A stretch of DNA of 62,841 nucleotides from a virus (lineage: Duplodnaviria; Caudoviricetes): positions 1 through 62,841 of the IMG/VR virus record IMGVR_UViG_3300046167_000691; one strand, 5' to 3'. Position numbers and translations under genes: made by a program. Positions 314 through 62,391 of this stretch are shown here, in pieces. The notes under the pieces were generated by a model. The model searched no databases. It was not told where the DNA came from and saw only the letters and a list, made by a program, of their open reading frames with translations. Every line of letters begins with the position of its first letter. Position 1 is the first letter of the stretch.

Positions 314-336
314 TATTATATATTACATGTCGTTTT
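314..336 (-). promoter_or_regulatory. Early-class promoter AAAACGAC-N8-TATAAT
   Basis: Repeated fixed-spacing motif upstream of a - strand ORF. Confidence 0.75.
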
Positions 337-473
337 TGCTATACACACACTCTGTTTTGTGGTAAAATTTCGATCTTTTTAGCTAAAATACGGTGAATTT
401 GGCTAAAGAACATAGGTATGCTATACACACAGTGTAGATTACTGTATTTTAGTTAAAAGCCGAAGCTATAAGC

Positions 474-791
474 CTACTTTTTAGTAGACTTAGCTTCAGT
501 TATAGTTGCCAGATGTCTGACAGTGCTTGGTAGGTTAGTACTTTGTGACCAGTACTTTCTTTTTATCCAGCAAGCTTGTAGTTGTAGCTTAGGTAACATT
601 GCATTGAGTATTGTATCATGACAGTATGTTACAGTTTGCTTTTTGTTGTTAACAAAGGTGATCTGTTGGTTGCGACCGAGCCAAGATTCTCTGACTACAA
701 AGTTTTTTCTGATGATCGGAGGCCAGATTTTAGCTTTATCTTCGTTTGACATTGTTTTTAGTGCTTTTTGCATAATTTCATTTGTGCTCAT
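474..791 (-). CDS. Early hypothetical protein, 105 aa
   Basis: ORF track; second allele at 61843-62160 differs mostly at synonymous sites. Confidence 0.85.
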   Translation of the reverse strand: MSTNEIMQKALKTMSNEDKAKIWPPIIRKNFVVRESWLGRNQQITFVNNKKQTVTYCHDTILNAMLPKLQLQACWIKRKYWSQSTNLPSTVRHLATITEAKSTKK

Positions 792-837
792 AATTTTTAA
801 TTTTAAGTTTATAATTTATTTTTAGTTTATATATTAA

Positions 838-860
838 TATTATATATTAATAGTCGTTTT
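838..860 (-). promoter_or_regulatory. Early-class promoter
   Basis: AAAACGAC-N8-TATAAT motif. Confidence 0.75.
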
Positions 861-948
861 AGTTATTTTATATAAATTAATTAAATTTAATATTTATTTT
901 TATATTTATTTTAATTATAATAATTATATTTATTATTAACTACATTTA

Positions 949-971
949 TATTATATATATAGTGTCGTTTT
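949..971 (-). promoter_or_regulatory. Early-class promoter, abutting TGCTATAC
   Basis: AAAACGAC-N8-TATAAT motif. Confidence 0.75.
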
Positions 972-1022
972 TGCTATACACAATGCTATGCACATTTTGC
1001 GATCGAGTAAAAAAATGCTATA

Positions 1023-1098
1023 CGCAGCCGGACCCCGGCTGGTTACCTCCGAGGTCAATTAGCTGAGGTCATCCCTCCTCACACCAAGGTCCGATGCG
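1023..1098 (-). ncRNA. Three-way-junction RNA motif, copy 1
   Basis: Long P1 with G-U pairs only on the - strand; P2 TGAGG/CCTCA; P3 ACCT/AGGT; conserved with 58263-58317. Confidence 0.65.
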
Positions 1099-1251
1099 CT
1101 AGACTGAAGCCCAGAACAGATCTTGCTGCTCTGGAGTTAGTCCTTTTAAGTTATCCTGGCCGAACATATCCTGGCAGATCTGGGTTCTTCGTTCAGACTC
1201 AGCTATGCCTCGCATAACCTCATCCCATGCTTGTGAATTAGTTTGATACAT
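1099..1251 (-). CDS. Early micro-ORF, 50 aa (MYQTNSQAWDEVMRG...)
   Basis: Translated by eye; frame conserved in the right repeat copy. Confidence 0.75.
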   Translation of the reverse strand: MYQTNSQAWDEVMRGIAESERRTQICQDMFGQDNLKGLTPEQQDLFWASV

Positions 1252-1252
1252 A

Positions 1253-1357
1253 TTAATTAATTTGTGTTAGTGAGTTAAGATATTCTACTGCGAGTGCTAG
1301 TTCGTAGTCATAGTTCATTGCTTGTGTGTACAGGTACTCTTCATTGTAATTTTTCAT
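1253..1357 (-). CDS. Early micro-ORF, 34 aa (MKNYNEEYLYTQAMNYDYE...)
   Basis: Translated by eye; tightly packed between neighbours; synonymous changes between repeat copies. Confidence 0.65.
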   Translation of the reverse strand: MKNYNEEYLYTQAMNYDYELALAVEYLNSLTQIN

Positions 1358-1358
1358 A

Positions 1359-1436
1359 TTAGTTTCGGATTGCGAAAGCTGCAGCAGCTCCCAGATTAGA
1401 CATTACTTTTTTAATTTTGATAATTGCATTTTTCAT
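1359..1436 (-). CDS. Early micro-ORF, 25 aa (MKNAIIKIKKVMSNLGAAAAFAIRN)
   Basis: First ORF after the promoter at 1463-1485. Confidence 0.55.
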   Translation of the reverse strand: MKNAIIKIKKVMSNLGAAAAFAIRN

Positions 1437-1462
1437 ATTATAGTTTTTATTAGTTACATTAT

Positions 1463-1485
1463 TATTATATATTATACGTCGTTTT
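1463..1485 (-). promoter_or_regulatory. Early-class promoter
   Basis: AAAACGAC-N8-TATAAT motif. Confidence 0.75.
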
Positions 1486-1493
1486 TAAAATAC

Positions 1494-1634
1494 TTAGCTA
1501 ACTAAGTACTTTATATGATCTCTTATGAAGTTTATATCTTCTTCATGAAAATGATTGTGATACTCTCCATTTAATTTTGTTAGTACATCATACATTTTTT
1601 CTTCTTTTGAGTAATTGATTGTGAATTCAAACAT
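1494..1634 (-). CDS. Early micro-ORF, 46 aa; probable paralogue of 1804-1986
   Basis: MFEFTINYSKEEKMYDVLTKLNGEYHNHFHEEDINFIRDHIKYLVS, translated by eye. Confidence 0.65.
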   Translation of the reverse strand: MFEFTINYSKEEKMYDVLTKLNGEYHNHFHEEDINFIRDHIKYLVS

Positions 1635-1719
1635 AATTTTTAATTTTTAATTTTTAATTTAATTTATAATTTATTTTAATTATTATTAATAATATTATTA
1701 TTATTATTAACTTCATATT

Positions 1720-1742
1720 TATTATATATACAGTGCCGTTTT
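1720..1742 (-). promoter_or_regulatory. Early-class promoter (CGGC variant)
   Basis: AAAACGGC-N8-TATAAT. Confidence 0.65.
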
Positions 1743-2330: not shown

Positions 2331-2353
2331 AATTATATATAGAGTGTCGTTAT
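2331..2353 (-). promoter_or_regulatory. Early-class promoter (variant), outermost of the early arm
   Basis: ATAACGAC-N8-TATAAT. Confidence 0.6.
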
Positions 2354-2472: not shown

Positions 2473-2571
2473 GGGGACTGGGTAAAATGAATTGCGTTTC
2501 CCGTAGGAAAAAGTTTTTATAAATAAGCATGTAGCCCTATACCTCTTATTATGCAATAACAATTTTTACCT

Positions 2572-2600
2572 GTAGCTTTTGGAAAAAACGTGTAATTATA
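2572..2600 (+). promoter_or_regulatory. Middle/late-class promoter GTAGCTTT-N9-CGTGTAATTATA
   Basis: Motif repeated 6 times with 21-22 nt from GTAG to TRATTATA; heads the structural arm. Confidence 0.75.
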
Positions 2601-2626
2601 TATAACCATATAATAGAATGTAACGG

Positions 2627-7352: not shown

Positions 7353-7358
7353 TAATCT

Positions 7359-7387
7359 GTAGCTTTATAAAATTACGTGTGATTATA
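7359..7387 (+). promoter_or_regulatory. Middle/late-class promoter upstream of groEL
   Basis: GTAGCTTT-N9-CGTGTGATTATA. Confidence 0.75.
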
Positions 7388-7404
7388 TAATAAAATCTAA
7401 TTAA

Positions 7405-34873: not shown

Positions 34874-37800
34874 ATGTATACATATATCATAGACGATAAA
34901 AAAGTAACATTTAAAAATTGGGACGAAGTCTCTTCCGCTTTAGATGAAGCAGAAAAAAATGGATTAACCGCTGAATATGTTGATTATGAAGAAGGTTTGG
35001 ACGGGCCTAAAACGGAGGAACAAACAAAAGCCGCCGAAGAAAAAAGTATTATACCAAAAGCTCCTTTTCTACCAGATGCTGCAGAGAGTGCGGATGTAGT
35101 GTCGAAGACTCAAGCACAAGATACGGACTCACGATCGGAAGACTCTTCTTCGGGTTCACGATACATAAGATTTAAAAGCGGTACAATAATATACGAGGAT
35201 GACTATGTACAAAACTATGCTGATACGGAAAATTATCCCAAGTCATTTGATGACTACGCTTTAAAATTCGGTGGCAAAGTTCAAAAGGTAGAAGAATCAG
35301 TTGTTGAGGGAGGTGAACTTGATCCCGTTTATATCAGCGCAGGACCTCAATCTTATGTTGCTGAATTAGAAGGACTAAACGAATTCGGAGAAATTACAGA
35401 CGGTCAAGTAACGATAGATTATGATAGCTTAGCAAAAGAAAACGGTTTTGAAAGTGCAGCGGAGGCTTATGCAGAAACCGAGCCAAAAAGAGAAATGCTA
35501 AATGTATTTGAACCTAATAATGTAATTACCGATAGAAAAGGTAATGTAACCACTAGATTCAAATATGTAGAATATGAGGATGATACACCTGAAAAGAAAA
35601 AATATTTACGCGAACAGAAAGAAGCTACAGACTATGCAGTAAAATTAGCTCTTAACAATACCGAATTTTCTACAAATGATATTACTGATGTAAACACCTT
35701 TAATAAAGAAGTTTTTAATCCTGAGTATCTTTCAGAGCAGGCTAAATATTTGGAAAAAGCACTGCCTCAACTTAATTTATATCAAGCAGAGCTTGCGGCT
35801 TCTAATTATAATAATGCTAAGTTGCAACTGCTAAAAAATAAAGAGCTAGACGAGAGTGAAGAAGCTATTAATATTCTGCAAGAAGATAAGAAGTATACAG
35901 CAGTTATGAATCTTTATGAGTCTGAAGCTCTTAATAATTTACCTAAAGCCGGAAAAGAATTAGGTGTTGCGAAAAATAAACTTGAAGAAGCAAAAACTAA
36001 TTTAAAAACAATTGATCCTAACGCGAGGGCTATTGATTATACTACGCAAGTAAGAAAAATTAACGACTATAAAGAACAATTACAAAAAGCTATTGAGGCT
36101 TACAGTAATCAAACGCCTTTTGATTATGATAGTGAGGGTAACTTTAAATTAAAAGATCCAGAGGTTCCTATTATAACAGATCTTGATTATAACATATTAA
36201 CTCCTCAGGAAGTAGAAATTGCTAAAAGTAACGGGCAAACTCTTCTTATTGAAAATGAAAGGTATAAATATAATTTAGATAGAGCTTCGCAATGGAATGA
36301 TCGTGAAACTATAAAAAACAATTTTCTTTTAACTAGCATTGATAATAATAAATACACTGCAAAAGGCAAAGAAATTTATTATATTAAAACTACATCACCA
36401 TTATCAGATCCTCAGTTAGCCGGATTTGCAGATACACTTGAAGAAGATTCACCTACTAATTTGGAATACCTGGGTTACACTAAGTCCGGGGAACGTTTTT
36501 CAAAACGGCGTAAAAAAGATGGAGAGTATAGAGCTTATACGCTTAGAGAAATATCTAATGCTATCAATGAAGGAGATTGGAGTATAGATAGAATTAAATT
36601 TAAAGATGGCAAACCTGAAGGCTTTAACACCGATAGGGACTTTTCTAGGTTTAGTATGAATTATGCTGACACAAAAATGATGCTACCTATAGTTACTGAT
36701 ATGTACGTGCTAGGGCTGGATCCGGGTACACAAGGTGAAGATACCGCTATAAATATGGCTGGAGCTTTTACTGATGAACTATTAGAAAATTCTTGGGGTT
36801 TATTTGGAGATGGATTGGAAACTATAAGAGAAAAGAAAGATGCTCAAAGATTTACACTTGGAAAAATAGGGTTGCCAGAAACAGAGTCAATGAAAAAATC
36901 TTTTGAAAGAGGATTTATGATGAGACTTAGCGAGAGTGCAGGGGCATTCGTGCCTGTTTTAGGGGAATTTAGTGTTGCTACCGCTTTAACAGGAGGGGTT
37001 GGCAATGTATTAGGAACTGGTAGATTTATAAAAACAGCATTTTCAGGGGGTAAAAATTTAGGTAAAGCGGCGCAGGGTGCTTGGAAATCTAGCTATTGGG
37101 GGAAAAATCCTAGAGCTGCTAAATTTGCTGCTCACATGTTAAAATTTGGTGAAGAGGAAATAAAGTTTTCAATGGTAGCCCGGGGCGAGAACACTCTTGG
37201 CTCAGGTGGCGCTTTTTACTTAGGCGGTCTACTAACGCAAAGACTTGTTCCATTTAGATTTAATACAAAATATGATTGGGCTAATCCTGCTAATAAATTC
37301 TTAGAAAAGATTGTTCTAACCGGAGTGGGAGGTGCTAGTTCTTCAGAACTTTCTCATTTATCAGAAGCTTTTTATAAAGAATTCACAGGGGATAAATCTC
37401 TTAAAACTTCTATGGACGAATTTTGGGGAGACAACTCAGAAACTATGACTAGATGGTCTATTAACTTAATGCAATTTTCGTTTTTAGGTGGTACTAAAAT
37501 GAAAACATGGGATTGGGTAGCTGAGTCAACTGTTCAAAAGCTTAACAATAAATTTGTTAGACAAAGAAATAAAGCTTTAAGTGAAGGTAAAGATGTTGAA
37601 AAACTAAACCAAAAAATATACGAAACGGATAAAATTTTAGAATTAGGTAAAACTGAAGTTCAAAAATCTGATGTGATGGCGTTGCAAGAGGAAATTAATA
37701 AAATTGAAAAAGACGTAAATTCAGGTAAACTAAGTTATTCAGAGCGCCAAGACGCTATGAACAGAAGAATTGCTAATGAAAAGCAAATAGAAAAACTTCA

Positions 37801-40800
37801 GACAGAATTTAAAAATAAGCAACCATATTTTAAAAAGGAATTTGGAGTAAATCTTGTATTTGGAGAAGTTCCGGGTTCCAGAGGTGAGCTGAGCCCAGAT
37901 GGCAAAACCCTTACTATAGATAAAAATAAATTAAGCGAGGGTGTATTACAGCATGAGATGGGACATTGGGCTATGATAATGTCAGGCCGAAAAAATGGGT
38001 TAGTTGATAAAATGTATGAATCTATTTATAGCAGAGTTGAGGATGCTATTAAAGCTACTCAACTTAGAGGGGATCTACAATTAGCAGAAACTAATGATGC
38101 TCAAGGCAATCCTCGTAAAACAAGTACCTTGCAACAAGTATTGGAGGCTAAATATGGTAAAAACAATAAAGTTCTTAAAGAAGAATTTATAATGTTTTCT
38201 ATAGAGTTTATGAAAAATAATAAATCTTTTTCTAACGCTTTACTAAATAGAGGTGTAATTCAGTCTGTATATAAAGATTTAGCTGTGTTTGCTAATAATA
38301 AAGGTATTAATTTTGGTAAAAAACCTATTAACCTAAATAATGGAAGTAAAGATAATAGAGCTGATGCCGTAATAGACTTATTATACAAAATGGCTAATGC
38401 TAAGGGGCAAGGATATAAAGAAAACGTAAAAGCTTTAGGTGGAGTTGCGGTAGATAAAAATGGAGTGTATAGCACGGCTTCAGGAGAGAAGCTTTTGGAT
38501 CAAAAGCAATTAAAATCTCGTGAAATACAAGAAGAGCAAAGCCCGGAATATAGAAAGTTAAAAGCAAAAAGGGACGCTAATAATCAGAAAATTATAGATT
38601 TTTACGAAGAAAATAAAACCACACAATCTCGTGAAACTCTAGCGGAGGATTTAAATTTTCAATTTTTAGATCATGTTAAATTCCATGCTCGTAAAGCTCT
38701 TACTTTAGCTAATCAAGGTAAATTTCCTACTGAGTCTGAAATATACGAAGCAGCAACCGCTTATATATACGGGCTTCCTACAATGGGCCAGCCCGGAGGT
38801 AAAACTTTAGCAGAAAAAGCTATCATGCCTTTTTTTAGAGGGCAAGATATAATAGCCGCTATTAAAAGAGATAACCTTTCTGTAGAGCAAACTATTGGTT
38901 TACTAAAACAAGGTAGTATTCCTACTGGAGCGAAGACTTATGAGGATGCAGCTAAGGATCTTCACGATATGGCAACAGGTAAAAAACCGGAAGCTAGTAT
39001 AATTACCTATGTTAATAATGCTATTAAAGTTCAGCTTTTACCTGATGTTATAAAAAATAAGATACAGGAAGATCAATATGTAACTACTGCAGACACTCAG
39101 CAGTTGGAATATTTTGCTGAACAAATGAGTGAATACGGAGAAGGGGAAGTGTTTTCAGAAAAAGATGTCAAAGACTTTAAAGAAGCTGCTACGGTTGATA
39201 AAAAAGATGAGGGTTACGATGGATCCGGAGCTGCTAAGCGTAGAACCCGTGATTCTGCAATGAACATACTTAATATTAAACCTGAGACGCGAAAGAAGGT
39301 TAAAGATATAGTAGTAGATAAAATTGAAAACGAGCCAATAGAAGGCTTAGATGCTTTTAGCGTGGGTACTATGAACTTTGGAAAAGGAAAAGTATTTGAT
39401 ATAGAAGTGCCTACCGAGCCTAATCGAGCTAACGCGTTCGGTCCTGATGGTGTTAAAATAGAATTTAAAGGCATAAGAAAACCAGCAGATATATTTGAAA
39501 AGATTATAAAAATTATAAAAAAGGATCTTACTAACGATATAATAGATCAGACTAAAACCCCTGAGCAAGTAACAGAAGCTAAGGCTGAGATGGAAAGAAT
39601 TTTAAATTTAAAATTTAAAAGAGATGTTGGCTATGAAAAAGAACCTACTAGATTATTTAGAGTTGGGTTAGAAAGAAAAGCAGAAGCTGATTTGTATCAA
39701 GACATAAGGGCTGAGATGGGAGAAGTAGGGTCTGAAGCGAATCTTAGATGGCTAGCTAAGGCTAGAGCCTTAATGGATAACTACATTGATTTAAGCCAAA
39801 TAACAAAACGATTTGATTTAGATGTACTCTACGAAAAAGTATACAAGCTAGATGCACAAGGCGAACCAGTATTAAATGCTAAAGGTCAAAAAGTGCAAGC
39901 AAGAAGTGGTGAGCGTGCTTCAGGAAATTTACTATTTAAAAAGAGAGCTATATCAGCAAAAGAATATTTTGATTATTTTAAAGACAACGTCGTTAGGCAA
40001 GAATCTTTAGCTAAAGCATTAGCTAGAGAATTTGCGTTTGATCAAATAGTGGATGTTCTTAAATCTGATACAATTAAAAAAATTGCTCTTAAGGAAGGCC
40101 AAGAAATTACTACTATTGACATGGAAAAAGGATCTGAAATTTTCAGGGAAGACATGTTCAAACATATTAGAAGAGGTAGCAATATAGAAAAACTTTATAG
40201 TAAAGAAATTCAAGCTAGCGCGGAAAAAAGGCAAATATCCGAAAAAGACTTTAAGAAAGGACTTAGAGATTCTATTTTTCAACTTAATAATGCAGGTTGG
40301 GAATCCCTAGATTATGTACAAAAAAGTTTTATTAATGATGTTATTCGTGCAGAAATGGTAGGAGAGGTTGCTAATCTACGTGCTACTTTAAAGAAAGACG
40401 CACAAGATAGGCTAATTAAAGATAAAGATAAAGTTGATAATCATTTTGAAAATTTAAATAAAGAAGAATTTGAAAAAAGACAGAAAGGTGTTATGTATGG
40501 AATTAAAACACTTTTTGGGGAAATATTTAATGAAACATTAAATAAAGTTGCTAAAAGTCGCGGAGGCAATATTTCTACTGGAGAATTTTTAAATTCTAGA
40601 ATTTTAGGTGCAAATGATATAAAAGTAGGTTTAAATTTAGGTCTTAAAAATTTATATGAAATTGAAGGAAGAGAGGGGAAAAATTATGGAATTAAAAATG
40701 CTGATGAATTATATAAATCATCTAGCAAATCCGATGCTGCAGAATATTTTGAGCCTGGAACATTAGAAAACTTAAAAACTAATACAGAGCTTAATAATTT

Positions 40801-43800
40801 ATTAAACGATGCCAACACAAAAATAAAGGAAGCAGATAAACTAGCTAAAACTTGGTATGAAAAATCCGGAATGAAGTATGAAGTTTCTAAAGTAACTTTG
40901 GACCAAAACTCTGAAGTAGCAAGAACTGAATTATTTCGTGAGTCAGATAAACTTAGAATAGAACAACCTAAGTTATCTACCTCAAAACACGCTAACATTC
41001 TTTTTAAAAGAATGACAGCAAAAATTGGTAAAGAAGGTGTTAACGCATTGATAGCAGAAAGTAATGCATTACAGGCTACCCAAAGGGCGGTATTATATAC
41101 TATGGGCTTATTAGGGGAAAATGTAAAAGGCAAAAAAGGAAATGATGCAATAAAAACGATGCTTTACATGATGTCAGAAAATAATCTGCAGGGTTCAAGA
41201 AAAATGGCTCCTGAGATATGGTATGATTTTAATACTATTTATGAAGCCAGCAGTCGTAATAAACAAGGAAAAATTACTAAAAAAACTATTAATAAAATTG
41301 ACAAACCTATAGGTAATGAACATCTGTTACCTAGAGCTGCTTATTGGAGAAAAGTGTTCCAAGCATATAACAGTAAAAAACTTACAGATAACTCCGTGTT
41401 AGATGCTTTAGTAGGTGGGTACGAAAGTATGATAAGTAAAAAGGAGTTTCAAAATTTATCGGATGCTCTTACAATACCTAATACATGGACAGGCAAAACT
41501 TTAATAAAAGATGCTCCGGTGCCTTTTTTAGGTAAATTACTAATAGCTACTACTCCTGGTAAAAGTTTAAATAAAGCCGCTTGGAAAAGAGTATTAGGTG
41601 ATAATGGCGGTATAAATATGAAAGATCTTAATAGATTAAATAATATAAGAAAACTTGATGGAACCACCGCTTTACAGCAATGGGGTAAGGATTTGATAGC
41701 TAATTTTGAAAGTAGCTTAGTTAAGCAATCTATAGATGCCGCATATTCTAACAAACTTTTAGCTAAAAACTTGAGATTGCCAGAAGGCGCTAATGGAAAA
41801 CAAATGGTTGGAGCGCTTAGGCCATCATTTAAATCCAAAGAAATTCAGGAGCAAGGAGAAAGCTACAAAGAGTATAAAGAAAGAAAACAAACGCCTAAGG
41901 GTAAGCTATTAGAAAAAGAGTTAGCTACTATGATAGAAAGAAAAGGAGGTGCTCCTGCAGAAGCTACAGTGTCTGATTCAAAAGCTTTTATGGAAGGTAA
42001 AAAAAGGTGGGATGATTTATTTATTCCTTCTAATTCTATGGATTTTCGGGATTTTCTTTACAAAGGTTATGGAAAAGGCAAGCAAGGAGATGCTGATATG
42101 GCGTTTATGGAGGAACATGTTTTAAGACCATTAACTCGAGCTGAAAATGCACTTAGTGTTTATAGAATGAAATTAGCCGAAGACTATGCAGCTTTAGAAA
42201 CTCAAATTAAAGCAATGGGTGAAACTAAACCAGAAAAAGAAGCAGCAAAGCGAGTTGAAAAACTTGGTTACAATATTGATCAAGCAGTCCGTGTGTATAT
42301 ATGGCAATCGTTAGCTATGGATATACCGGGAATATCATTAGCTGAAAAATCTCAGTTAACGGGTGCAGTAATGTCTTCTCCAAAATTAAGAGCCTATGCA
42401 AAAGGAATAATGGATATAACTAAAACTAAAGAAAAATATCCTGAACCTAGTGCTAACTGGTTTAGAAGTAATGTACAATATGATTTATTCACACACGCAA
42501 CAGATGGTGTACGTGCGGATTTCTTATATGAATGGCAAGAGAATGTTGACGCCATGTTTACTAAAGAAAATTTAAATAAATTAGAATCTAGATTTGGTAG
42601 TAAGTATAGATATAACTTAGAGCAAATGCTTACGCGTATAGCAAAAGGAAAGTCAAGACCGGAAAGTACTAATGATTCTTTTAATACTACTCTTAATTAT
42701 ATTAATGGATCAGTTGCAACTATTATGTTTTTAAACATGAGATCCGCTGCTCTGCAAACTATATCTGCGGCTAACTATGTAAATTGGACAGACAACAACC
42801 CTATAGAAATAGCTAAAGTTATAAGTAAAAATCCTAAACTTTTTATACAAACAGCTAAAAAAATATGGTCTTCCGATGCATTACGTGATAGACGTACTGG
42901 ATTAAAAATTAATGTTCAGGAAGCTGAAATGGCTAAAGCTATGAAGCAAGGAGGAAGAACTGCCGCACAAGAAATATGGGATCAAATGATCAAAATAGGA
43001 TTTAAGCCTACACAGATGGCGGATAGTTTTGCTATTGTTATGGGTGGAACACCTTTCTATATGAACAGAATGAAAACGTATGAGAAAGAAGGTTTGAGTA
43101 AGAATGAAGCCGCTGACAAAGCTTGGGAAGATTTTCTAGACAAAACACAAGAAGGACAGCAATCGTCTCAAATGGATCGTATAAGCAATATACAGACAGG
43201 TTTAATGGGAAGATTGGTTTTTTCATTTAATAATACCCCCTTCCAAATGTCTAGACTACAAAAGAAAGCGTTTTTGGATTTAAAAAATAATAGAGGAGAC
43301 AAGAAAACTAATGTATCTAGAATGGCATATTATGGTCTTGTACAATCTTCATTATTTTATGGCTTACAGCAAGCATTTTACAGTACTGTAATGACCGATG
43401 ACGAAGAGCTGAGTGAAAAAGAGAAAGCTGAAAAGTACACTATGTATGAAAAGCGACTAGATAAACTAGGTAGAAGTGTGTGGCAAGGTATATTAACAGG
43501 GTCAGGATTACCAGGCAAGCTTAGCGTAATGGGATATAATACCGCATTAGAGGCAGCTACTCAATATAAAAAAGGATATCAAGGGTCTGATTTTTTCCCT
43601 ATATTATCTCAAATATTATCTGTATCCCCTACGCTTGGAAGTAAAGTAAATAGATTAGGTAGAAACTGGAAAAGTCTTATCATGGCTGAAAAAACAAAAA
43701 AAGGCATAGAATTTGGAAATACATTTAATACTTTAGATCCTCGTAATCCTAATAATAAAGCTTACATATCTATGGTTGGTACAATTACTAATATACCTTT

Positions 43801-44359
43801 AGATCGTATTGTGCAAAAAATGGAAAATTTATCGAATGCTTTTGATGCACAAAATGAGTTATGGCAACGTGCTGCAATGCTTATGGGAACTCCTAAATAT
43901 CAATTACAAACTAAAGAGCAAAACGACAGAGACAGACAGAACAAACTAGATACTTTTTACTTGAATAATACTTCTAAAGGGCAAAGGGATATTGATGCTA
44001 TTGAAAGCTTAAATATTAAAGAACAAAAAGATTTTATGAAAGCTTTAGGGGGAACTAAAGAATGGATTAAAACACTAGACACCCAATCTGAGCGCACAAG
44101 TACTTTGTTATATTTAGCAAAAGAAGCGGGTATTGATATTGAAAAGCAATATGAAAAATACGAATATAAAGAAATAGAAAGAAGCGAAGAATACAAAGAA
44201 ATACAAGAATGGGGCAGAGACAAGCAAATAGATTGGATAAAAGCCAATGGTATTAATCCAGATGCAATGAAATTTGTTAGAAAAAGTGAAGCTGATAGAA
44301 TATATATAATACAAGAATTAATGAAAAATAATAAAAACAAACAAAACTCTTTAAAATAA
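34874..44359 (+). CDS. Giant (3161 aa) internal virion polyvalent protein with zincin HEMGH, sigma-2-like and EHxxP nuclease-like segments
   Basis: Uninterrupted ORF at the end of the ejection cluster; motifs read by eye. Confidence 0.75.
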   Translation: MYTYIIDDKKVTFKNWDEVSSALDEAEKNGLTAEYVDYEEGLDGPKTEEQTKAAEEKSIIPKAPFLPDAAESADVVSKTQAQDTDSRSEDSSSGSRYIRFKSGTIIYEDDYVQNYADTENYPKSFDDYALKFGGKVQKVEESVVEGGELDPVYISAGPQSYVAELEGLNEFGEITDGQVTIDYDSLAKENGFESAAEAYAETEPKREMLNVFEPNNVITDRKGNVTTRFKYVEYEDDTPEKKKYLREQKEATDYAVKLALNNTEFSTNDITDVNTFNKEVFNPEYLSEQAKYLEKALPQLNLYQAELAASNYNNAKLQLLKNKELDESEEAINILQEDKKYTAVMNLYESEALNNLPKAGKELGVAKNKLEEAKTNLKTIDPNARAIDYTTQVRKINDYKEQLQKAIEAYSNQTPFDYDSEGNFKLKDPEVPIITDLDYNILTPQEVEIAKSNGQTLLIENERYKYNLDRASQWNDRETIKNNFLLTSIDNNKYTAKGKEIYYIKTTSPLSDPQLAGFADTLEEDSPTNLEYLGYTKSGERFSKRRKKDGEYRAYTLREISNAINEGDWSIDRIKFKDGKPEGFNTDRDFSRFSMNYADTKMMLPIVTDMYVLGLDPGTQGEDTAINMAGAFTDELLENSWGLFGDGLETIREKKDAQRFTLGKIGLPETESMKKSFERGFMMRLSESAGAFVPVLGEFSVATALTGGVGNVLGTGRFIKTAFSGGKNLGKAAQGAWKSSYWGKNPRAAKFAAHMLKFGEEEIKFSMVARGENTLGSGGAFYLGGLLTQRLVPFRFNTKYDWANPANKFLEKIVLTGVGGASSSELSHLSEAFYKEFTGDKSLKTSMDEFWGDNSETMTRWSINLMQFSFLGGTKMKTWDWVAESTVQKLNNKFVRQRNKALSEGKDVEKLNQKIYETDKILELGKTEVQKSDVMALQEEINKIEKDVNSGKLSYSERQDAMNRRIANEKQIEKLQTEFKNKQPYFKKEFGVNLVFGEVPGSRGELSPDGKTLTIDKNKLSEGVLQHEMGHWAMIMSGRKNGLVDKMYESIYSRVEDAIKATQLRGDLQLAETNDAQGNPRKTSTLQQVLEAKYGKNNKVLKEEFIMFSIEFMKNNKSFSNALLNRGVIQSVYKDLAVFANNKGINFGKKPINLNNGSKDNRADAVIDLLYKMANAKGQGYKENVKALGGVAVDKNGVYSTASGEKLLDQKQLKSREIQEEQSPEYRKLKAKRDANNQKIIDFYEENKTTQSRETLAEDLNFQFLDHVKFHARKALTLANQGKFPTESEIYEAATAYIYGLPTMGQPGGKTLAEKAIMPFFRGQDIIAAIKRDNLSVEQTIGLLKQGSIPTGAKTYEDAAKDLHDMATGKKPEASIITYVNNAIKVQLLPDVIKNKIQEDQYVTTADTQQLEYFAEQMSEYGEGEVFSEKDVKDFKEAATVDKKDEGYDGSGAAKRRTRDSAMNILNIKPETRKKVKDIVVDKIENEPIEGLDAFSVGTMNFGKGKVFDIEVPTEPNRANAFGPDGVKIEFKGIRKPADIFEKIIKIIKKDLTNDIIDQTKTPEQVTEAKAEMERILNLKFKRDVGYEKEPTRLFRVGLERKAEADLYQDIRAEMGEVGSEANLRWLAKARALMDNYIDLSQITKRFDLDVLYEKVYKLDAQGEPVLNAKGQKVQARSGERASGNLLFKKRAISAKEYFDYFKDNVVRQESLAKALAREFAFDQIVDVLKSDTIKKIALKEGQEITTIDMEKGSEIFREDMFKHIRRGSNIEKLYSKEIQASAEKRQISEKDFKKGLRDSIFQLNNAGWESLDYVQKSFINDVIRAEMVGEVANLRATLKKDAQDRLIKDKDKVDNHFENLNKEEFEKRQKGVMYGIKTLFGEIFNETLNKVAKSRGGNISTGEFLNSRILGANDIKVGLNLGLKNLYEIEGREGKNYGIKNADELYKSSSKSDAAEYFEPGTLENLKTNTELNNLLNDANTKIKEADKLAKTWYEKSGMKYEVSKVTLDQNSEVARTELFRESDKLRIEQPKLSTSKHANILFKRMTAKIGKEGVNALIAESNALQATQRAVLYTMGLLGENVKGKKGNDAIKTMLYMMSENNLQGSRKMAPEIWYDFNTIYEASSRNKQGKITKKTINKIDKPIGNEHLLPRAAYWRKVFQAYNSKKLTDNSVLDALVGGYESMISKKEFQNLSDALTIPNTWTGKTLIKDAPVPFLGKLLIATTPGKSLNKAAWKRVLGDNGGINMKDLNRLNNIRKLDGTTALQQWGKDLIANFESSLVKQSIDAAYSNKLLAKNLRLPEGANGKQMVGALRPSFKSKEIQEQGESYKEYKERKQTPKGKLLEKELATMIERKGGAPAEATVSDSKAFMEGKKRWDDLFIPSNSMDFRDFLYKGYGKGKQGDADMAFMEEHVLRPLTRAENALSVYRMKLAEDYAALETQIKAMGETKPEKEAAKRVEKLGYNIDQAVRVYIWQSLAMDIPGISLAEKSQLTGAVMSSPKLRAYAKGIMDITKTKEKYPEPSANWFRSNVQYDLFTHATDGVRADFLYEWQENVDAMFTKENLNKLESRFGSKYRYNLEQMLTRIAKGKSRPESTNDSFNTTLNYINGSVATIMFLNMRSAALQTISAANYVNWTDNNPIEIAKVISKNPKLFIQTAKKIWSSDALRDRRTGLKINVQEAEMAKAMKQGGRTAAQEIWDQMIKIGFKPTQMADSFAIVMGGTPFYMNRMKTYEKEGLSKNEAADKAWEDFLDKTQEGQQSSQMDRISNIQTGLMGRLVFSFNNTPFQMSRLQKKAFLDLKNNRGDKKTNVSRMAYYGLVQSSLFYGLQQAFYSTVMTDDEELSEKEKAEKYTMYEKRLDKLGRSVWQGILTGSGLPGKLSVMGYNTALEAATQYKKGYQGSDFFPILSQILSVSPTLGSKVNRLGRNWKSLIMAEKTKKGIEFGNTFNTLDPRNPNNKAYISMVGTITNIPLDRIVQKMENLSNAFDAQNELWQRAAMLMGTPKYQLQTKEQNDRDRQNKLDTFYLNNTSKGQRDIDAIESLNIKEQKDFMKALGGTKEWIKTLDTQSERTSTLLYLAKEAGIDIEKQYEKYEYKEIERSEEYKEIQEWGRDKQIDWIKANGINPDAMKFVRKSEADRIYIIQELMKNNKNKQNSLK

Positions 44360-52130: not shown

Positions 52131-52133
52131 ATA

Positions 52134-52156
52134 TATTATATTCTGGTAGTCGTTTT
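52134..52156 (-). promoter_or_regulatory. Early-class promoter (drives ssb/replication genes)
   Basis: AAAACGAC-N8-TATAAT. Confidence 0.7.
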
Positions 52157-53480: not shown

Positions 53481-53517
53481 TTATATAAGGTTTTTATTTG
53501 CGAACTTTCTATATATA

Positions 53518-53546
53518 TATAATTACACGTTTTTAAAGAAAGCTAC
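53518..53546 (-). promoter_or_regulatory. Middle/late-class promoter upstream of ERF
   Basis: GTAGCTTT-N9-CGTGTAATTATA on the - strand. Confidence 0.75.
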
Positions 53547-53566
53547 AGGTTATTTTTAATTATAAC

Positions 53567-54331
53567 TTACAGTAAATCAGGTAGTTGTAAGTCGTTTGTT
53601 TTTTCTACTAATTTTCTTAAAGCTTCTCGTTTAATTTCAGAAATTCTAGCACCCTTCATTTTGTAAGAACCTTCTATTCCAAATATCTCACAAATTTCAA
53701 CTGCATTGTGTTTGTCGCAATCAAGCCCAAACGATAATCTTATAACATCACTCTCACGTTCGGTTAAATGTTTTTTTAATAAAGCTAAAAGATAGTTATT
53801 AATAAGATCTAAATTATAATGTTGTGAAGTATCTGATATTTCTATTTGAGTATCTTCGCCTTCATTATTAGATATTTTAAAATCACCCATATACATTGAC
53901 TTAGATTTATTCAGTAAAGTGTTAACTATTGGATCGCTAGACTTGTTTCTAATTTCATTTATTTTCCACTCTGGTATTTTAATATCTCCCATATTTGCAT
54001 TAATATATCTACGTATAGTTCCTTTTATTCTTTTAGATAAAAAGGATTTTAAAGTTTGCTCAATATTAGCGGATTCATTTAATATTACCCAGTCTATTTT
54101 ATCTATAGCCATTATTAAACCAACATTACCGGCTTGTATTAGATCATTTATGCTTAATATGCCTATAGCTTGATGAGAGGTTGCAAATTTACGAGCTAAG
54201 TTTTCTACGAGAGGCATAAACTTTATAATCAGTTCGTCTCTGCTATACTCGTCCCAAAATAAACCTTCTGGCATTGATAATTTTAAATCTTCTTTATACC
54301 TAATGTAATTTTGTACATTGTATTTTTTCAT
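53567..54331 (-). CDS. Sigma-70-family RNA polymerase sigma factor
   Basis: Region 2 LVENLARKF...DLIQAGNVGLIMAIDKID; region 4 LTERESDVIRLSFGL...ISEIKREALRKL. Confidence 0.9.
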   Translation of the reverse strand: MKKYNVQNYIRYKEDLKLSMPEGLFWDEYSRDELIIKFMPLVENLARKFATSHQAIGILSINDLIQAGNVGLIMAIDKIDWVILNESANIEQTLKSFLSKRIKGTIRRYINANMGDIKIPEWKINEIRNKSSDPIVNTLLNKSKSMYMGDFKISNNEGEDTQIEISDTSQHYNLDLINNYLLALLKKHLTERESDVIRLSFGLDCDKHNAVEICEIFGIEGSYKMKGARISEIKREALRKLVEKTNDLQLPDLL

Positions 54332-55665: not shown

Positions 55666-56274
55666 TTAATGGTAGATGAGTCCAATTTTGTGGTTGTCGG
55701 GACTGTACCATTTGGTTGCCCGAAGATCATACTCGCTGCTATCGTTATAGCCAGCACTGTTGAGATCACTAACAGAGCTAAAAATTCTGGTGTGGCGATC
55801 GGTCGTTTCATTTATTAAGTGTTTTTGTTTGCCTGAATCACTGTATATAATATCATAGTTATCAGGTAGTTGTACTTCTTTAGTTAATTGTATCATATTT
55901 GTGTAAGAATAGAACTTAACGTGTGGGTTGTGTATAGCAATTTGAATCCACTTATTTAAGTAAGCTCTACTATAATAATCACCAGAGTCATGTACTCTTA
56001 CAAAGTCGGGTTTCTTACGTCTGATCTCATCATTCATAGACTCGATAAATTTATCGGTCTTGCTCAACTCATATCGCTTTTCAAACGCAGGTTGGACGTT
56101 AGACCAGATGTAAGCACCTTTCTTAGCATAACAGAACTTAATACACTCATCAGCCATAGGACAAGTAAGTTTACCGGATGCAGATTTATATGCAGGTATA
56201 CCGAAGTTCATTAGCTTAACACCAAAGTGTTTACTAGTCTTTTTAATTTTAGAATTTTGTGTAAGTAAGTTCAT
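55666..56274 (-). CDS. Gp88-like (radical-SAM-related) protein
   Basis: TCPMADECIKFCYAKKG, RVHDSGDYYS, FYSYT. Confidence 0.75.
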   Translation of the reverse strand: MNLLTQNSKIKKTSKHFGVKLMNFGIPAYKSASGKLTCPMADECIKFCYAKKGAYIWSNVQPAFEKRYELSKTDKFIESMNDEIRRKKPDFVRVHDSGDYYSRAYLNKWIQIAIHNPHVKFYSYTNMIQLTKEVQLPDNYDIIYSDSGKQKHLINETTDRHTRIFSSVSDLNSAGYNDSSEYDLRATKWYSPDNHKIGLIYH

Positions 56275-56289: not shown

Positions 56290-56312
56290 TATTATATGTT
56301 ATATGTCGTTTT
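56290..56312 (-). promoter_or_regulatory. Early-class promoter (operon running toward the sigma gene)
   Basis: AAAACGAC-N8-TATAAT. Confidence 0.75.
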
Positions 56313-56786: not shown

Positions 56787-57269
56787 TTATTCGAATTGCG
56801 AAGCGCAGGTGTATAGCACTTCTTTGTTAGTATTAGCACAGTGTGCTTTTTCATTAATATAATAGTTGCGGTATGCAGCTATAGAATCGTTTTCGACTTT
56901 GTATTCATCAGGCATGCATTGAGGCATGTCGGTTAAACCAATATTAAATATAGGGCCTGGTGTTTGTGACAATATGTCGCGACATTTAGTTATAGTAAGA
57001 TGTTCTTTATTATAACGCTTTTTATATTCTTTGCCGAGAGCCATCATGTGGAAGTATAGCCAAGCGTAGTTTGATCGAGAGGTACGTGCCCAAATGGCTG
57101 ACGGATGATTTTTATGCGTTAACTTGTAGGGAACATCGATTTCACTGCCAAGCATTATATGTGCAGAACAGAGTAGTTGAGCGGACTCAAGGATCATTTT
57201 AACAACGTGCTTGTTATACTGTAACTGTGCAGCACGTTCAGGGTCGGAGTTTAAATAAAATATATTCAT
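56787..57269 (-). CDS. Pyrimidine-dimer DNA glycosylase-like (DenV family)
   Basis: MNIFYL..DP, HVVKMILESAQLL, THKNHP, PQCMPDEYK, AYRNYY. Confidence 0.8.
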   Translation of the reverse strand: MNIFYLNSDPERAAQLQYNKHVVKMILESAQLLCSAHIMLGSEIDVPYKLTHKNHPSAIWARTSRSNYAWLYFHMMALGKEYKKRYNKEHLTITKCRDILSQTPGPIFNIGLTDMPQCMPDEYKVENDSIAAYRNYYINEKAHCANTNKEVLYTCASQFE

Positions 57270-57274
57270 ACAGT

Positions 57275-57297
57275 TATTATATGTTAGTTGTCGTTTT
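57275..57297 (-). promoter_or_regulatory. Early-class promoter overlapping the upstream stop (KNDN*)
   Basis: AAAACGAC-N8-TATAAT. Confidence 0.75.
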
Positions 57298-57841
57298 TGA
57301 TATTTAGTTGCTCTATAGCATTAGTTATCTCGTCTAATAATCTTTTGTATTGGTTATCAGAGTTGTGATTACTTATAGTTTCCCACGCTGTTTTTAATAT
57401 TTGTGGCACTTTAGCTGGCCACTCATAGCCTTTGCTGTGGAATTCCAGCTCGACATCGGCACGTACATCGTCGTATACTTTGTCACACATATCTTCAATA
57501 GCTTCGTCGATAATACCCTCAGCATCACAGTATATAGACAAACCGTTGCGTATAGCATCTTGTACTTCGTCAATGATTTGAGGAGAATAATCTTGATAGT
57601 ATATATCTTCATTTACGCATATTGCGTTAGGGTTATGTGTACATATCCATACAGAGTGTCCGTCACGTGTAGATTCTTCATACACATATAGATCTTGTTC
57701 TTGCCATCTATCACTATAGCTTGCGCCGTAATGATCTAGTACAAGCTGTGTAAATTCGCCGTTTTGCTCGCTAATTTGTTTTTCGCTAAAGCCAAGTTCG
57801 TGCATCGCTGCTTCAATTAATTCATCGGTTAATAGTTTCAT
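57284..57841 (-). CDS. Acidic hypothetical protein
   Basis: ORF track. Confidence 0.75.
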   Translation of the reverse strand: MKLLTDELIEAAMHELGFSEKQISEQNGEFTQLVLDHYGASYSDRWQEQDLYVYEESTRDGHSVWICTHNPNAICVNEDIYYQDYSPQIIDEVQDAIRNGLSIYCDAEGIIDEAIEDMCDKVYDDVRADVELEFHSKGYEWPAKVPQILKTAWETISNHNSDNQYKRLLDEITNAIEQLNIKNDN

Positions 57842-57866: not shown

Positions 57867-57889
57867 TATTATATATTATTTGTCGTTTT
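57867..57889 (-). promoter_or_regulatory. Early-class promoter
   Basis: AAAACGAC-N8-TATAAT. Confidence 0.75.
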
Positions 57890-58131
57890 TGTTATCAAGT
57901 GCATCAAGTATGTACTCGTAGATTTCTTTTTCACGTATTTCGCTGTCAAGTACCATTTCCATCTCTTCTTTAGATACACCGCCGTAGATACCAGTTCTTA
58001 ACTGTTTTTTAGTATCTTCAACGAGCAACATAAGGCTTCACTAGTTTGGCTTGGATCTTGTCGGTGGCCAACCAATGGATATCAGGATTCGTAATTATTT
58101 TTTTCATTCATAGGTTTAGTTTAAAGGTTAG

Positions 58132-58691: not shown

Positions 58692-58714
58692 TATTATATA
58701 TAGTATGTCGTTTT
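58692..58714 (-). promoter_or_regulatory. Early-class promoter (upstream of the ncRNA cluster)
   Basis: AAAACGAC-N8-TATAAT. Confidence 0.75.
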
Positions 58715-59945: not shown

Positions 59946-59968
59946 TATTATATAAGGTATGTCGTTTT
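59946..59968 (-). promoter_or_regulatory. Early-class promoter
   Basis: AAAACGAC-N8-TATAAT. Confidence 0.75.
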
Positions 59969-60426: not shown

Positions 60427-60429
60427 AGT

Positions 60430-60708
60430 TTATTTATTTTGACAGTTATTAAGGTCGAACATGTATAGCAAACGTAGTCGATCGAGTTCGTTATTAATTA
60501 ATGTTCTAGTGTAATAGTAGTTATCACGGTTTTTATTATAGTGTTTAACTTTAGTGTTAATTTGGTATAGTTTTACACCACGTCTTTTGAAGTGTGGTTG
60601 ATCTTTACAACTCACTCTAACGTAACCGGATTTATAGGTGTAACCTAATCTTCCATCACTCATTTCACATTTAATTGTACCGTTTTTACTGATGTTTAAT
60701 ACTTTCAT
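60430..60708 (-). CDS. Early hypothetical protein
   Basis: ORF track; YKSGYVR...LYQIN. Confidence 0.7.
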   Translation of the reverse strand: MKVLNISKNGTIKCEMSDGRLGYTYKSGYVRVSCKDQPHFKRRGVKLYQINTKVKHYNKNRDNYYYTRTLINNELDRLRLLYMFDLNNCQNK

Positions 60709-60740
60709 AGTTTATTATATTTAATTATTATTATTTACTT

Positions 60741-60763
60741 TATTATATATTAATAGTCGTTTT
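60741..60763 (-). promoter_or_regulatory. Early-class promoter
   Basis: AAAACGAC-N8-TATAAT. Confidence 0.75.
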
Positions 60764-60765
60764 TA

Positions 60766-60921
60766 TTATATTATATTTAACTCCATTAATATAGATTCTT
60801 CAATGTCTTCATTTAAGAATTGTGTAGAGTCATACTCTAGCTTCATAGTTTCTATTAGTTCTTCGATCTCCCGTAATCTACCGGGATATTGTAGTTCGAT
60901 TTGACTTTGTATTCTATTCAT
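60766..60921 (-). CDS. Early acidic micro-ORF, 51 aa
   Basis: MNRIQSQIELQYPGRLREIEE..., translated by eye. Confidence 0.65.
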   Translation of the reverse strand: MNRIQSQIELQYPGRLREIEELIETMKLEYDSTQFLNEDIEESILMELNII

Positions 60922-60957
60922 AGTTTATTATATTTATAGTTATTAATTATTTAAATT

Positions 60958-60980
60958 TATTATATATTTATAGTCGTTTT
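60958..60980 (-). promoter_or_regulatory. Early-class promoter
   Basis: AAAACGAC-N8-TATAAT. Confidence 0.75.
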
Positions 60981-61067
60981 TATTATTATACTCTATGACA
61001 ACGTGTCGGTACACTATGTCATGTCGAATTGTCATACCCTTTTTACTAAAATAATCTCTGATATTCA

Positions 61068-61096
61068 GTAGTTTTCACCAAAAACGTGTAATTATA
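61068..61096 (+). promoter_or_regulatory. Middle/late-class promoter with no downstream + ORF
   Basis: GTAGTTTT-N9-CGTGTAATTATA. Confidence 0.7.
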
Positions 61097-61122
61097 ATAG
61101 TATTTATAAAAACTCTTCTTTT

Positions 61123-61223
61123 AGTGTAATTTAGTTATATAGAGTTAACTTACTCACTGGTCTTATAGTGAGTCTTTGACTCTACTTTGTTAGTTTTACC
61201 TAACTAAATAGTATATTTACACT
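61123..61223 (+). ncRNA. Candidate structured RNA downstream of the late-class promoter
   Basis: Nested stems AGTGTAA/TTACACT, TAGAGTTAA/TTGACTCTA, ACTCACT/AGTGAGT, TTAGTT/AACTAA. Confidence 0.45.
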
Positions 61224-61246
61224 TAAATACCCTAGTGAGAACCGTT

Positions 61247-61462
61247 TTAACAACAATTACATCGATCCCACTCTTTACCGTTTCTACATGTTTCACCTAA
61301 AACTTCTAAATCGCAGAATTCTCGGTGATAGAACTCTATTAACTCTGTTGTAGTGAACTTCTTCCTCCACTGAGTTGTCTGTTCGATCCAGTGGTACTCA
61401 CCGGATTTTTCTACATTTCCGTCATTCATCCATTCTAACATTTCTTTAGTTACTTCATACAT
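61247..61462 (-). CDS. Early hypothetical protein, 71 aa
   Basis: ORF track. Confidence 0.7.
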   Translation of the reverse strand: MYEVTKEMLEWMNDGNVEKSGEYHWIEQTTQWRKKFTTTELIEFYHREFCDLEVLGETCRNGKEWDRCNCC

Positions 61463-61659
61463 AGTTATTATATTTAATTATTAGTTTATTATTAATTACA
61501 CTTTTATTATATATTACATGTCGTTTTTGCTATACACACACTCTGTTTTGTGGTGAAAGATCGATCTTTTTAGCTAAAATACGGTGAATTTGGCTAAAGA
61601 ACATAGGTATGCTATACACGCGGTGTAGATTACCGCATGTTACAGTCCGTTTTGACTAC

Positions 61660-61791
61660 CTAGCCAATAGTTAATTTATGGTGGTAGTCTCTGGCATACT
61701 CGATCACGCTCTCTTCCGTAATCATACCACGTAAATACTGGTTTAAGTTGTCAATCATAGCAATAGTTTCAATTCTGATCTGGTTATTCAT
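61660..61791 (-). CDS. Micro-ORF, 43 aa, present only in the right repeat copy
   Basis: MNNQIRIETIAMIDNLNQYLRGMITEESVIEYARDYHHKLTIG, translated by eye. Confidence 0.65.
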   Translation of the reverse strand: MNNQIRIETIAMIDNLNQYLRGMITEESVIEYARDYHHKLTIG

Positions 61792-61842
61792 AGTGTATAG
61801 CATTTTAAGTTATTAATTATTAATTATTATTTGAGCAAAAGC

Positions 61843-62160
61843 CTACTTTTCAGTAGACTTTGCTTCAGTTATTTCAGCTAGATGTCTAACTGTGCTCGGT
61901 AGGTTAGTACTCTGTGACCAGTACTTTCGCTTGATCCAACATGCTTGCAGTTGTAGCTTAGGCAGCATTGCATTGAGTATTGTATCATGACAGTATGTTA
62001 CAGTTTGCTTTTTGTTGTTAACAAAGGTGATCTGTTGGTTGCGACCGAGCCAAGACTCTCTGACTACAAAGTTTTTTCTGATGATCGGAGGCCAGATCTT
62101 AGCTTTATCTTCGTTTGACATTGTTTTTAGTGCTTTTTGCATAATTTCATTTGTGCTCAT
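61843..62160 (-). CDS. Early hypothetical protein, allele of 474-791
   Basis: ORF track; 2 aa differences. Confidence 0.85.
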   Translation of the reverse strand: MSTNEIMQKALKTMSNEDKAKIWPPIIRKNFVVRESWLGRNQQITFVNNKKQTVTYCHDTILNAMLPKLQLQACWIKRKYWSQSTNLPSTVRHLAEITEAKSTEK

Positions 62161-62391
62161 AATTTTTAATTTTAAGTTTATAATTTATTTTTAGTTTATA
62201 TATTAATATTATATATTAATAGTCGTTTTAGTTATTTTATATAAATTAATTAAATTTAATATTTATTTTTATATTTATTTTAATTATAATAATTATATTT
62301 ATTATTAACTACATTTATATTATATATATAGTGTCGTTTTTGCTATACACAATGCTATGCACATTTTGCGATAGAGTAAAAAAATGCTATA

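Follow-up and report, generated by a model that had tools for sequence, protein, structure and literature searches.

A putative sigma-70-like early promoter class, unlike the host type, in sigma-encoding uncultured marine phages

How does a phage launch transcription when none of its promoters resembles those of its host? The question is raised by IMG/VR record IMGVR_UViG_3300046167_000691, one uncultured virus record of 62,841 bases that was analyzed at full length and is called the window below. The minus strand of the window carries a repeated signal, AAAACGAC-N8-TATAAT (here class I), which the original prediction took for a non-canonical early promoter requiring a dedicated recognition factor available at injection. 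When the window was searched for the exact signal, 15 copies were found, all on the minus strand (mean of 0.00 in 100 shuffles). Allowing up to two mismatches gave 17 matches (shuffle mean 1.74, largest 6), the two additional copies each having one mismatch, within the box (AAAACGGC at 1721-1742 and ATAACGAC at 2332-2353). Strand counts over the whole record were 0 forward and 17 reverse, and a reversed-pattern control gave no match on either strand. The 17 copies, their restriction to the minus strand and the invariant spacing (N8 between box and TATAAT in 17/17 copies) are therefore as predicted. The sites listed were genuine, although their coordinates were one base low (314 for 315 and so forth). 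As had also been noted, the last three copies (61506, 62208 and 62319) are end-repeat duplicates of those at 315, 839 and 950, leaving 14 distinct sites. The copies are as follows.

315..336, minus strand: class I, exact; end-repeat twin of 61506
839..860, minus strand: class I, exact; twin of 62208; the start of open reading frame (ORF) 474-791 lies 47 nucleotides (nt) past TATAAT
950..971, minus strand: class I, exact; twin of 62319; preceded by GTATAGCA words
1464..1485, minus strand: class I, exact; pattern match, in the logo alignment
1721..1742, minus strand: class I, one mismatch (AAAACGGC); three GTATAGCA words immediately upstream
2332..2353, minus strand: class I, one mismatch (ATAACGAC); outermost copy, beside the divergent control region 2354-2626
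52135..52156, minus strand: class I, exact; heads the replication and nucleotide block (primase-helicase, ThyA, MazG, ribonucleotide reductase); ATG 4 nt past TATAAT
56291..56312, minus strand: class I, exact; last copy upstream of the sigma gene; the start of ORF 55666-56274 lies 16 nt past TATAAT
57276..57297, minus strand: class I, exact; overlaps the KNDN-stop end of ORF 57284-57841
57868..57889, minus strand: class I, exact; overlaps the KNDK-stop end of ORF 57876-58031
58693..58714, minus strand: class I, exact; pattern match, in the logo alignment
59947..59968, minus strand: class I, exact; pattern match, in the logo alignment
60742..60763, minus strand: class I, exact; pattern match, in the logo alignment
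60959..60980, minus strand: class I, exact; pattern match, in the logo alignment
61506..61527, minus strand: class I, exact; end-repeat twin of 315
62208..62229, minus strand: class I, exact; end-repeat twin of 839
62319..62340, minus strand: class I, exact; end-repeat twin of 950

The sites fall between ORFs or on ORF ends, before the next start. An ORF of at least 30 amino acids (aa) beginning with ATG starts 4-47 nt after TATAAT at 10 of the 17 copies, in keeping with the claim that the copies precede ORFs; the distance is 86-158 nt at five others and 278 nt at one, and the ORF downstream of the remaining copy leaves the window edge. Retention of the signal inside coding ends is also genuine, as two copies overlap the ends of ORF 57284-57841 (IKNDN-stop) and ORF 57876-58031 (NKNDK-stop). 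At two sites the start codon is very close to the hexamer. The ATG of ORF 56787-57269 is the seventh base past TATAAT (57269-57276) and that of ORF 51948-52130 starts 4 nt past TATAAT (52130-52135); the mRNAs of these two ORFs may be leaderless or nearly so. The GTATAGCA word (TGCTATAC on the opposite strand) recurs immediately before several of the copies close to the repeated end (950-1000, 1742-1790 and 2354-2365 in minus-strand reading) and also occurs four to seven times per locus, in either orientation, in relatives L011, L013, L015, L016 and L022. It may be the binding site of a regulator.

Alignment of the 14 distinct copies as a logo, with numbering that sets TATAAT at -12 to -7, gave a signal longer than first described, tATAnYA-AAAACGAC-n5-ATA-TATAAT-A, in which conservation spans about -35 to -6. 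The upstream block has A-34 in 14/14, T-33 in 13/14 and A-32 in 13/14 copies plus a pyrimidine at -30; its ATA lies 22, 21 and 20 nt before TATAAT, and 17 nt separate the TATAnC hexamer from TATAAT. AAAACGAC is invariant at spacer positions -28 to -21, the box centre lying near -24, and AAAAACGAC is conserved at -29 to -21. A proximal block (A-15 in 12/14, T-14 in 11/14 and A-13 in 14/14) precedes TATAAT, which is followed by A-6 in 13/14. The seventh base past TATAAT is a purine in 14/14 copies and a G in six, even though just 15 of the 350 downstream bases are G; the base before this putative start (-1) is T in 10/14.

The prediction that the arrangement is unlike sigma-70 geometry was not supported, as worded, by the alignment. 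The hexamer has the A at position 2 and the T at position 6 expected of a sigma-70 -10 element (TATAAT in 17/17 copies and (G/T)ATAAT in the 250 family copies described below). As the ATA block, kept in 13-14 of 14 copies, sits at the 17-nt distance (within the usual 16-18 nt), the AAAACGAC box would fill the spacer of such a promoter instead of taking the place of its -35 element. In common with T7 A1 (TTGACT-17-GATACT) and canonical sigma-70 promoters, class I has a -10 TATAAT/GATAAT; it would also have a spacer of 16-17 nt to ATA(A/G)CA and a purine start. In contrast, canonical promoters lack a spacer box, whereas AAAACGAC is the most conserved part of class I, conservation in the spacer being stronger than in the -35-distance word, which is not TTGACA-like and matches TTGACA only in ACA. 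A generic sigma-70 scan scored three class I copies at 10/12 (ATAACA-16-TATAAT), but over all sites in the window there was no excess over shuffles (58 vs 56.8). No shared hairpin was found at the class I sites: 14/14 folds had z values between -1.58 and +1.41 with no common stem. This geometry fits a sigma-70-family promoter used by a bacterial multisubunit RNA polymerase. That class I is a promoter class is supported by the strand-locked copies, the sites before ORFs, the perfect -10 hexamer and the purine at the expected start in 14/14, from which we infer promoter function.

Downstream of these sites the window encodes a sigma factor of its own.

53567..54331, minus strand: sigma-70-family factor of 254 aa with regions 2, 3 and 4, regions 3-4 being nearest SigA/RpoD; inside the block that class I would drive

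The Pfam matches, Sigma70_r2 (7e-05) and Sigma70_r4 (1.3e-04), fall just under that database's cut-offs, and the protein scores 51.1 bits against TIGR02937 (cut-off 42.9), 7e-10 against SigA chains and 1.8e-17 against phrog_351. A comparison with 50,697 phage records turned up no close relative, the best match being 24.6% identical. One viral collection yielded 90 homologues, for which 80 loci, all from uncultured phages, were kept. The exact window motif was found in only one of these loci (L021), and a looser family pattern was thus required. This pattern, A[AT]AC[GA]A-N9-[GT]ATAAT, gave 250 sense and 0 antisense copies across the 80 loci, with at least three copies in 45/80. The commonest version is AATACGA-N9-GATAAT(ATAAT). 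The box varies among relatives (AAACGA, ATACGA, ACACGA and ATACAA); AAACGA is paired with TATAAT in the window and L021 and with GATAAT in L011 and L014. In five whole relatives the -10 word GGATAATATAAT with at most one mismatch gave 24 matches on one strand vs 3 on the other, and all 18 exact matches were on the former strand, mostly clustered within a few kilobases. The sigma gene is downstream of class I in the relatives as in the window. Judged by its sequence, class I is a promoter class common to a large group of uncultured marine phages carrying their own sigma factor.

A sigma tree built by a quick method has two deep clades. The class I variants (A/T at -26 and T/G at -12) are clustered but do not follow this tree, and covariation of promoter variant with sigma clade was rejected as a way to name the reader, since the AAACGA/TATAAT version occurs in both clades (window and L021). 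The L021 sigma belongs to clade B, yet L021 has the window's version. In L021 the early-region DNA and promoters are near-identical to those of the window while the sigma protein is only 54% identical and lies in the opposite deep clade. Apparently, either the sigma gene or the early region has been exchanged. Most relatives, L016, L067 and L081 among them, encode directly before sigma a conserved protein of roughly 214 aa whose C-terminus (...CSTRTIYRNM...) is helix-turn-helix-like; the window gave no tblastn match to it at E <= 1. Family-type class I sites were also seen in contig G006:C7 of a metagenome-assembled genome labelled Flavobacteriaceae, at 51850/52997 and 114481/115627. The 62.63-kb interval suggests that a related phage genome is present there as two tandem copies, or so it seems from the repeated sites.

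The host of the window phage is probably a member of the Flavobacteriia, and the original prediction correctly set class I apart from the Bacteroidota consensus. In the accessible portion of the Flavobacterium psychrophilum start-site map (PMC9723704), Flavobacteriia sigma-A promoters are given as TTG / TAnnTTTG, none of the six motif classes described is class I-like, and the sigma repertoire consists only of sigma-A, sigma-54 and seven extracytoplasmic function (ECF) factors. The sigma-A pattern (TAnnTTTG at -12 to -5 with TTG near -33) was present in 0/17 class I copies. The two promoter types have TA at -12/-11 and T at -7 in common, but class I lacks TTTG (17/17) and lacks TTG at -33. Host-type TTG-N18-22-TAnnTTTG pairs were absent from any sensible place in the window, and none was found in sense ahead of early genes in the 80 loci; a candidate before sigma in L012 and L014 was discarded because its gap is 23 nt, which fails the pattern. 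Nor is the family pattern enriched in 68 genomes of the Flavobacteriales, the order of Salibacter halophilus (149 matches vs 184 for the reversed control). Host-type promoters are used by other phages, unlike the window. Three sigma-less relatives, which are cultured or named phages, have them in intergenic places, such as ahead of GroEL in MW202828, and inspection of the phi14:2 sequence (a crAss-like Cellulophaga phage) showed typical TTG...TAnnTTTG middle promoters at the genes named by its authors. Purified Cellulophaga baltica RNA polymerase is reported (bioRxiv 10.1101/2020.03.07.982082) to use T7 A1, a promoter of the sigma-70 type, as an in vitro template, indicating that a Flavobacteriia holoenzyme can use Escherichia coli-like promoters in vitro.

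A second signal, class II (CTGTAGCTTT...ACGTGTAATTATATA), reads TGTAGC-N16-TAATTA with GTG just upstream and has standard geometry, with a 16-nt spacer in 3/3 strong copies.

53516..53548, minus strand: class II, between the sigma stop codon and the Erf gene
2570..2602, plus strand: class II, heading the plus-strand (virion) block
7357..7389, plus strand: class II, ahead of the GroEL gene (7405-8943)
61084..61098, plus strand: class II-like core with two mismatches, antisense to early genes

Weaker copies lie near 23,194, 54,600 and 61,084, all on the plus strand. The core GTAATTAT was found within 120 nt past the sigma stop in 65/78 loci. The -35 words of the two classes are similar in the window (TATAGC for class I and TGTAGC for class II), whereas in the relatives the classes differ in both -35 and -10 words. 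Both classes were seen only in sigma-bearing genomes (the 80 loci vs the three sigma-less relatives), which is an association. One class II-like core, at about 54598-54630 (plus strand) and with counterparts conserved in L011, L012 and L014, falls within the 370 nt that separate the sigma gene from its upstream neighbor. Together with that at 61084-61098, it could produce late antisense RNAs against early transcripts.

We tentatively favor a two-step cascade, a possibility that we put at somewhat short of an even chance, in which the host holoenzyme would read class I and the phage sigma would read class II. The 17 copies (14 distinct) would be early promoters recognized by bacterial multisubunit RNA polymerase through a specificity subunit of the sigma-70 family, with TATAAT as the -10 hexamer, tATAnYA at the -35 distance and transcripts presumably starting at the purine 7 nt downstream. 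Class I would drive the entire minus-strand block, in which the gene for the phage sigma lies among small early ORFs and the replication genes would be served by the 52135 copy. It would fire first, with the host holoenzyme reading in a non-consensus, E. coli-like mode, and thereby give rise to the phage sigma. That protein would then direct the host core polymerase to TGTAGC-N16-TAATTA, and class II would serve the Erf and exonuclease genes right after the sigma gene, the virion genes and GroEL. The ACGA box, whose distance of 9 nt to the -10 hexamer is fixed throughout the family, would be an extra element peculiar to these phages, for instance one bound by a phage protein that enhances early transcription or turns it off later. 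The original proposal of a dedicated factor present at injection found no support: no RNA polymerase was detected in the giant virion-module protein discussed below, no packaging-type leader was found on the phage sigma, and Cellulophaga polymerase is reported to act on T7 A1. The argument for such a factor also overlooked the sigma-70-family gene at 53567-54331, downstream of the same promoters.

Several observations weigh against the cascade. Class I agrees with the Flavobacteriia sigma-A consensus only at T-12, A-11 and T-7. The three sigma-less relatives have neither a sense-strand class I site (there is one antisense pattern match, in elemo) nor the class II core, so class I accompanies the sigma gene in a manner that a host reader leaves unexplained. 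Moreover, the ACGA box is invariant and kept at one distance, which suggests that whatever recognizes it is physically linked to the reader of the -10 hexamer. Finally, a search of five whole relatives found the exact class II core mostly once per genome, and the assignment of class II as late promoters thus rests mainly on the window.

A competing reader is the 254-aa phage sigma itself, acting on class I alone or together with class II. Transcription would then begin with a trickle of unaided host activity followed by self-amplification, or with sigma from the previous cycle carried in with the DNA. The distribution of the sites fits such a reader: the sigma-bearing loci hold all 250 sense copies and the sigma-less relatives none in sense and no class II core. 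TATAAT plus an element at the -35 distance is what group 1-3 sigma factors read, and the two window classes have similar -35 words. The paucity of host alternatives points the same way, given that no sensible host-type promoter was found in the window or in sense ahead of early genes in the 80 loci, that the family pattern is not enriched in the Flavobacteriales genomes and that the F. psychrophilum repertoire, as far as the accessible text of PMC9723704 lists it, is restricted to sigma-A, sigma-54 and seven ECF factors. The difficulty is one of bootstrapping, since the sigma gene is itself downstream of class I and has no host-type promoter. The idea of a packaged sigma was rejected: there is no sigma paralogue in the window, the virion module included, and the protein has no packaging-type N-terminal leader and no leader in common with other proteins. 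The failure of the class I variants to track the sigma tree, and the presence right after the sigma gene of a second, better conserved class that in relatives differs in -35 and -10 words, also speak against the phage sigma as reader of class I, and we consider this reading rather unlikely. A protein delivered with the DNA would solve the bootstrapping problem, either as a virion RNA polymerase hidden in the giant protein or as an injected adaptor that retargets host polymerase. This would be consistent with the lack of host-type promoters in the window, with the presence of a virion-module protein of N4/crAss-like size and with the variation of the box among related phages (AAACGA, ATACGA, ACACGA and ATACAA); polymerase-specific promoters vary among T7-like phages. 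The perfect TATAAT and the pyrimidine-purine start, however, are hallmarks of the bacterial enzyme, and the candidate protein gave no polymerase signal.

34874..44359, plus strand: virion-module protein of 3161 aa, checked as a candidate delivered polymerase; no polymerase signal

The 3161-aa protein lacks a DxDxD motif and the T7-like motif set, has no Pfam or PHROG family and gave no match to PDB sequences with phmmer or with a 16-sequence profile. AlphaFold models were all-helical for residues 2331-3059 (predicted local distance difference test score, pLDDT, 74.8) and had a pLDDT of 65 for residues 1131-2330. Foldseek searches with these two models (residues 1131-3059) found no PDB fold match (E <= 0.001), residues 1-1130 being searched by sequence only; within these bounds, no N4- or crAss-type virion polymerase domain, T7-like or two-barrel, was found in the window's virion protein. 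The homologues are modular, some having Zeta-toxin/AAA kinase domains, weak atlas leads point to 'polyvalent protein' domains, and the sigma-less relatives also encode such a giant protein. It looks like a modular injected 'polyvalent' protein, and delivery of a class I reader seems improbable. The protein also has an invariant HExxH-like pair (E1028 and H1031), and its C-terminal module (about residues 2340-3040), which is all-helical, shows very high conservation. Lastly, the motif might not be a promoter at all but an RNA or DNA signal (a processing site, a translation enhancer or a replication or packaging iteron) accompanied by a chance TATAAT-like word in AT-rich DNA. TATAAT alone is indeed frequent in the window, where the early region is AT-rich (181 vs 148.7 in shuffles), and GTATAGCA words cluster near the repeated end. 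A chance word would not be expected to keep a fixed distance in 17/17 window and 250 family copies or to have a purine exactly 7 nt downstream in 14/14, and the sites, which are intergenic or overlap the end of one ORF and precede the start of the next, have no common structure. We regard this explanation as very improbable.

Comparison with characterized phages places the window among those that encode a sigma factor. Phage sigma-factor cascades include those of SPO1 (gp28 and gp33/34), phiEco32 (gp36) and T4 (gp55), in which early promoters match the consensus of the host primary sigma. The window has in common with them the phage-encoded sigma-70-family protein, its gene lying in the early region, and at least two promoter classes for different gene blocks, but neither class matches the host consensus, and the consensus of the inferred host phylum (Bacteroidota) is itself different. 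The window is a variant of the known theme of a phage with its own sigma. T4 middle promoters combine a MotA box near -30 with a sigma-70 -10 element, sigma being appropriated by MotA/AsiA. Class I is alike in that an asymmetric box precedes a -10 hexamer by a short, constant distance, in front of non-structural genes. It differs in that its box is centred near -24, not -30, and an ATA block is also kept at the -35 distance. No MotA- or AsiA-like protein was found, as the 22 + 19 minus-strand proteins scanned had no Pfam family of any kind, although small ORFs may escape detection. N4 virion-polymerase promoters (DNA hairpins) and T7-type promoters resemble class I in their many phage-specific copies in an early region near a repeated end and in the presence of a giant virion protein. 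Unlike N4, class I has no hairpin (14/14 folds) and no polymerase was detected, and we take the box-to-TATA distance to differ from that of T7 promoters. Literature searches at the level of titles and listings found no papers on these promoters or on flavobacterial phage sigma factors.

Marine Flavobacteriia phages are abundant and their takeover of transcription is almost unstudied. The present lineage (90 sigma-gene relatives in one viral collection) would have replaced host-type promoters with two classes of its own plus a private sigma, and thus bears on how a phage can start when no promoter resembles those of its host. It is unlikely, but would be of consequence, that the lineage runs its entire transcription without the host primary sigma, its own sigma or another delivered specificity protein arriving with the DNA or amplifying itself from promoters that are poorly read by any host sigma. 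The ACGA box at -25 to -22 would then be a new kind of promoter element, whose separation from the -10 hexamer no sigma region 4 is known to bridge. A 30-nt promoter and a 254-aa sigma factor make a compact testable system, and its parts could be adapted as orthogonal expression tools for the Bacteroidota, in which E. coli signals perform poorly.

The genome is organized in two blocks. The minus-strand block runs from 62,841 to 45,164, continues from 2,353 to 1, and contains the small ORFs, sigma, Erf, exonuclease, primase-helicase, ThyA, MazG and ribonucleotide reductase. The plus-strand block (2,627 to 44,977) encodes GroEL, terminase, portal, other virion proteins and the 3161-aa protein. 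The divergent control region (2354-2626), where the outermost class I copy and the first class II copy face away from each other, contains a palindrome, GCTAGCGCTGCAGCTAGC, and AAAGCT repeats; it may act as an origin, as a packaging site or as an operator region. Bases 1 to about 1650 repeat 61193-62841 at offsets of 61191-61369 with 93-100% identity. This repeat is inexact, with a length difference of 178 bases, whereas a true terminal repeat should be identical; the window ends may derive from population variants or from a concatemer.

Among named phages, the closest are Flavobacterium phage elemo, Maribacter phage Panino and MW202828, with 65-70% DNA identity over terminase plus portal. Shine-Dalgarno-like words precede 6/44 plus-strand and 0/37 minus-strand ORFs. 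Such scarcity fits a host from the Bacteroidota, which are described in the accessible text of PMC9723704 as not using Shine-Dalgarno sequences. The best ThyA matches are to contigs binned as Bacteroidota/Flavobacteriales that are short or concatemer-like; ThyA was set aside as weak evidence of the host, the matching contigs probably being phage DNA. The phage is probably an uncultured marine podovirus of roughly 61 kb. Within 23242-31776 (plus strand) there are many short ORFs in differing frames, at a position occupied in relatives by large structural genes (in MW202828 a 'structural protein' gene of 4,656 nt), and these broken ORFs may reflect frameshifts, assembly errors or recoding. Parts of the window sequence are present in 20 public runs from 17 studies, six of the runs being RNA.

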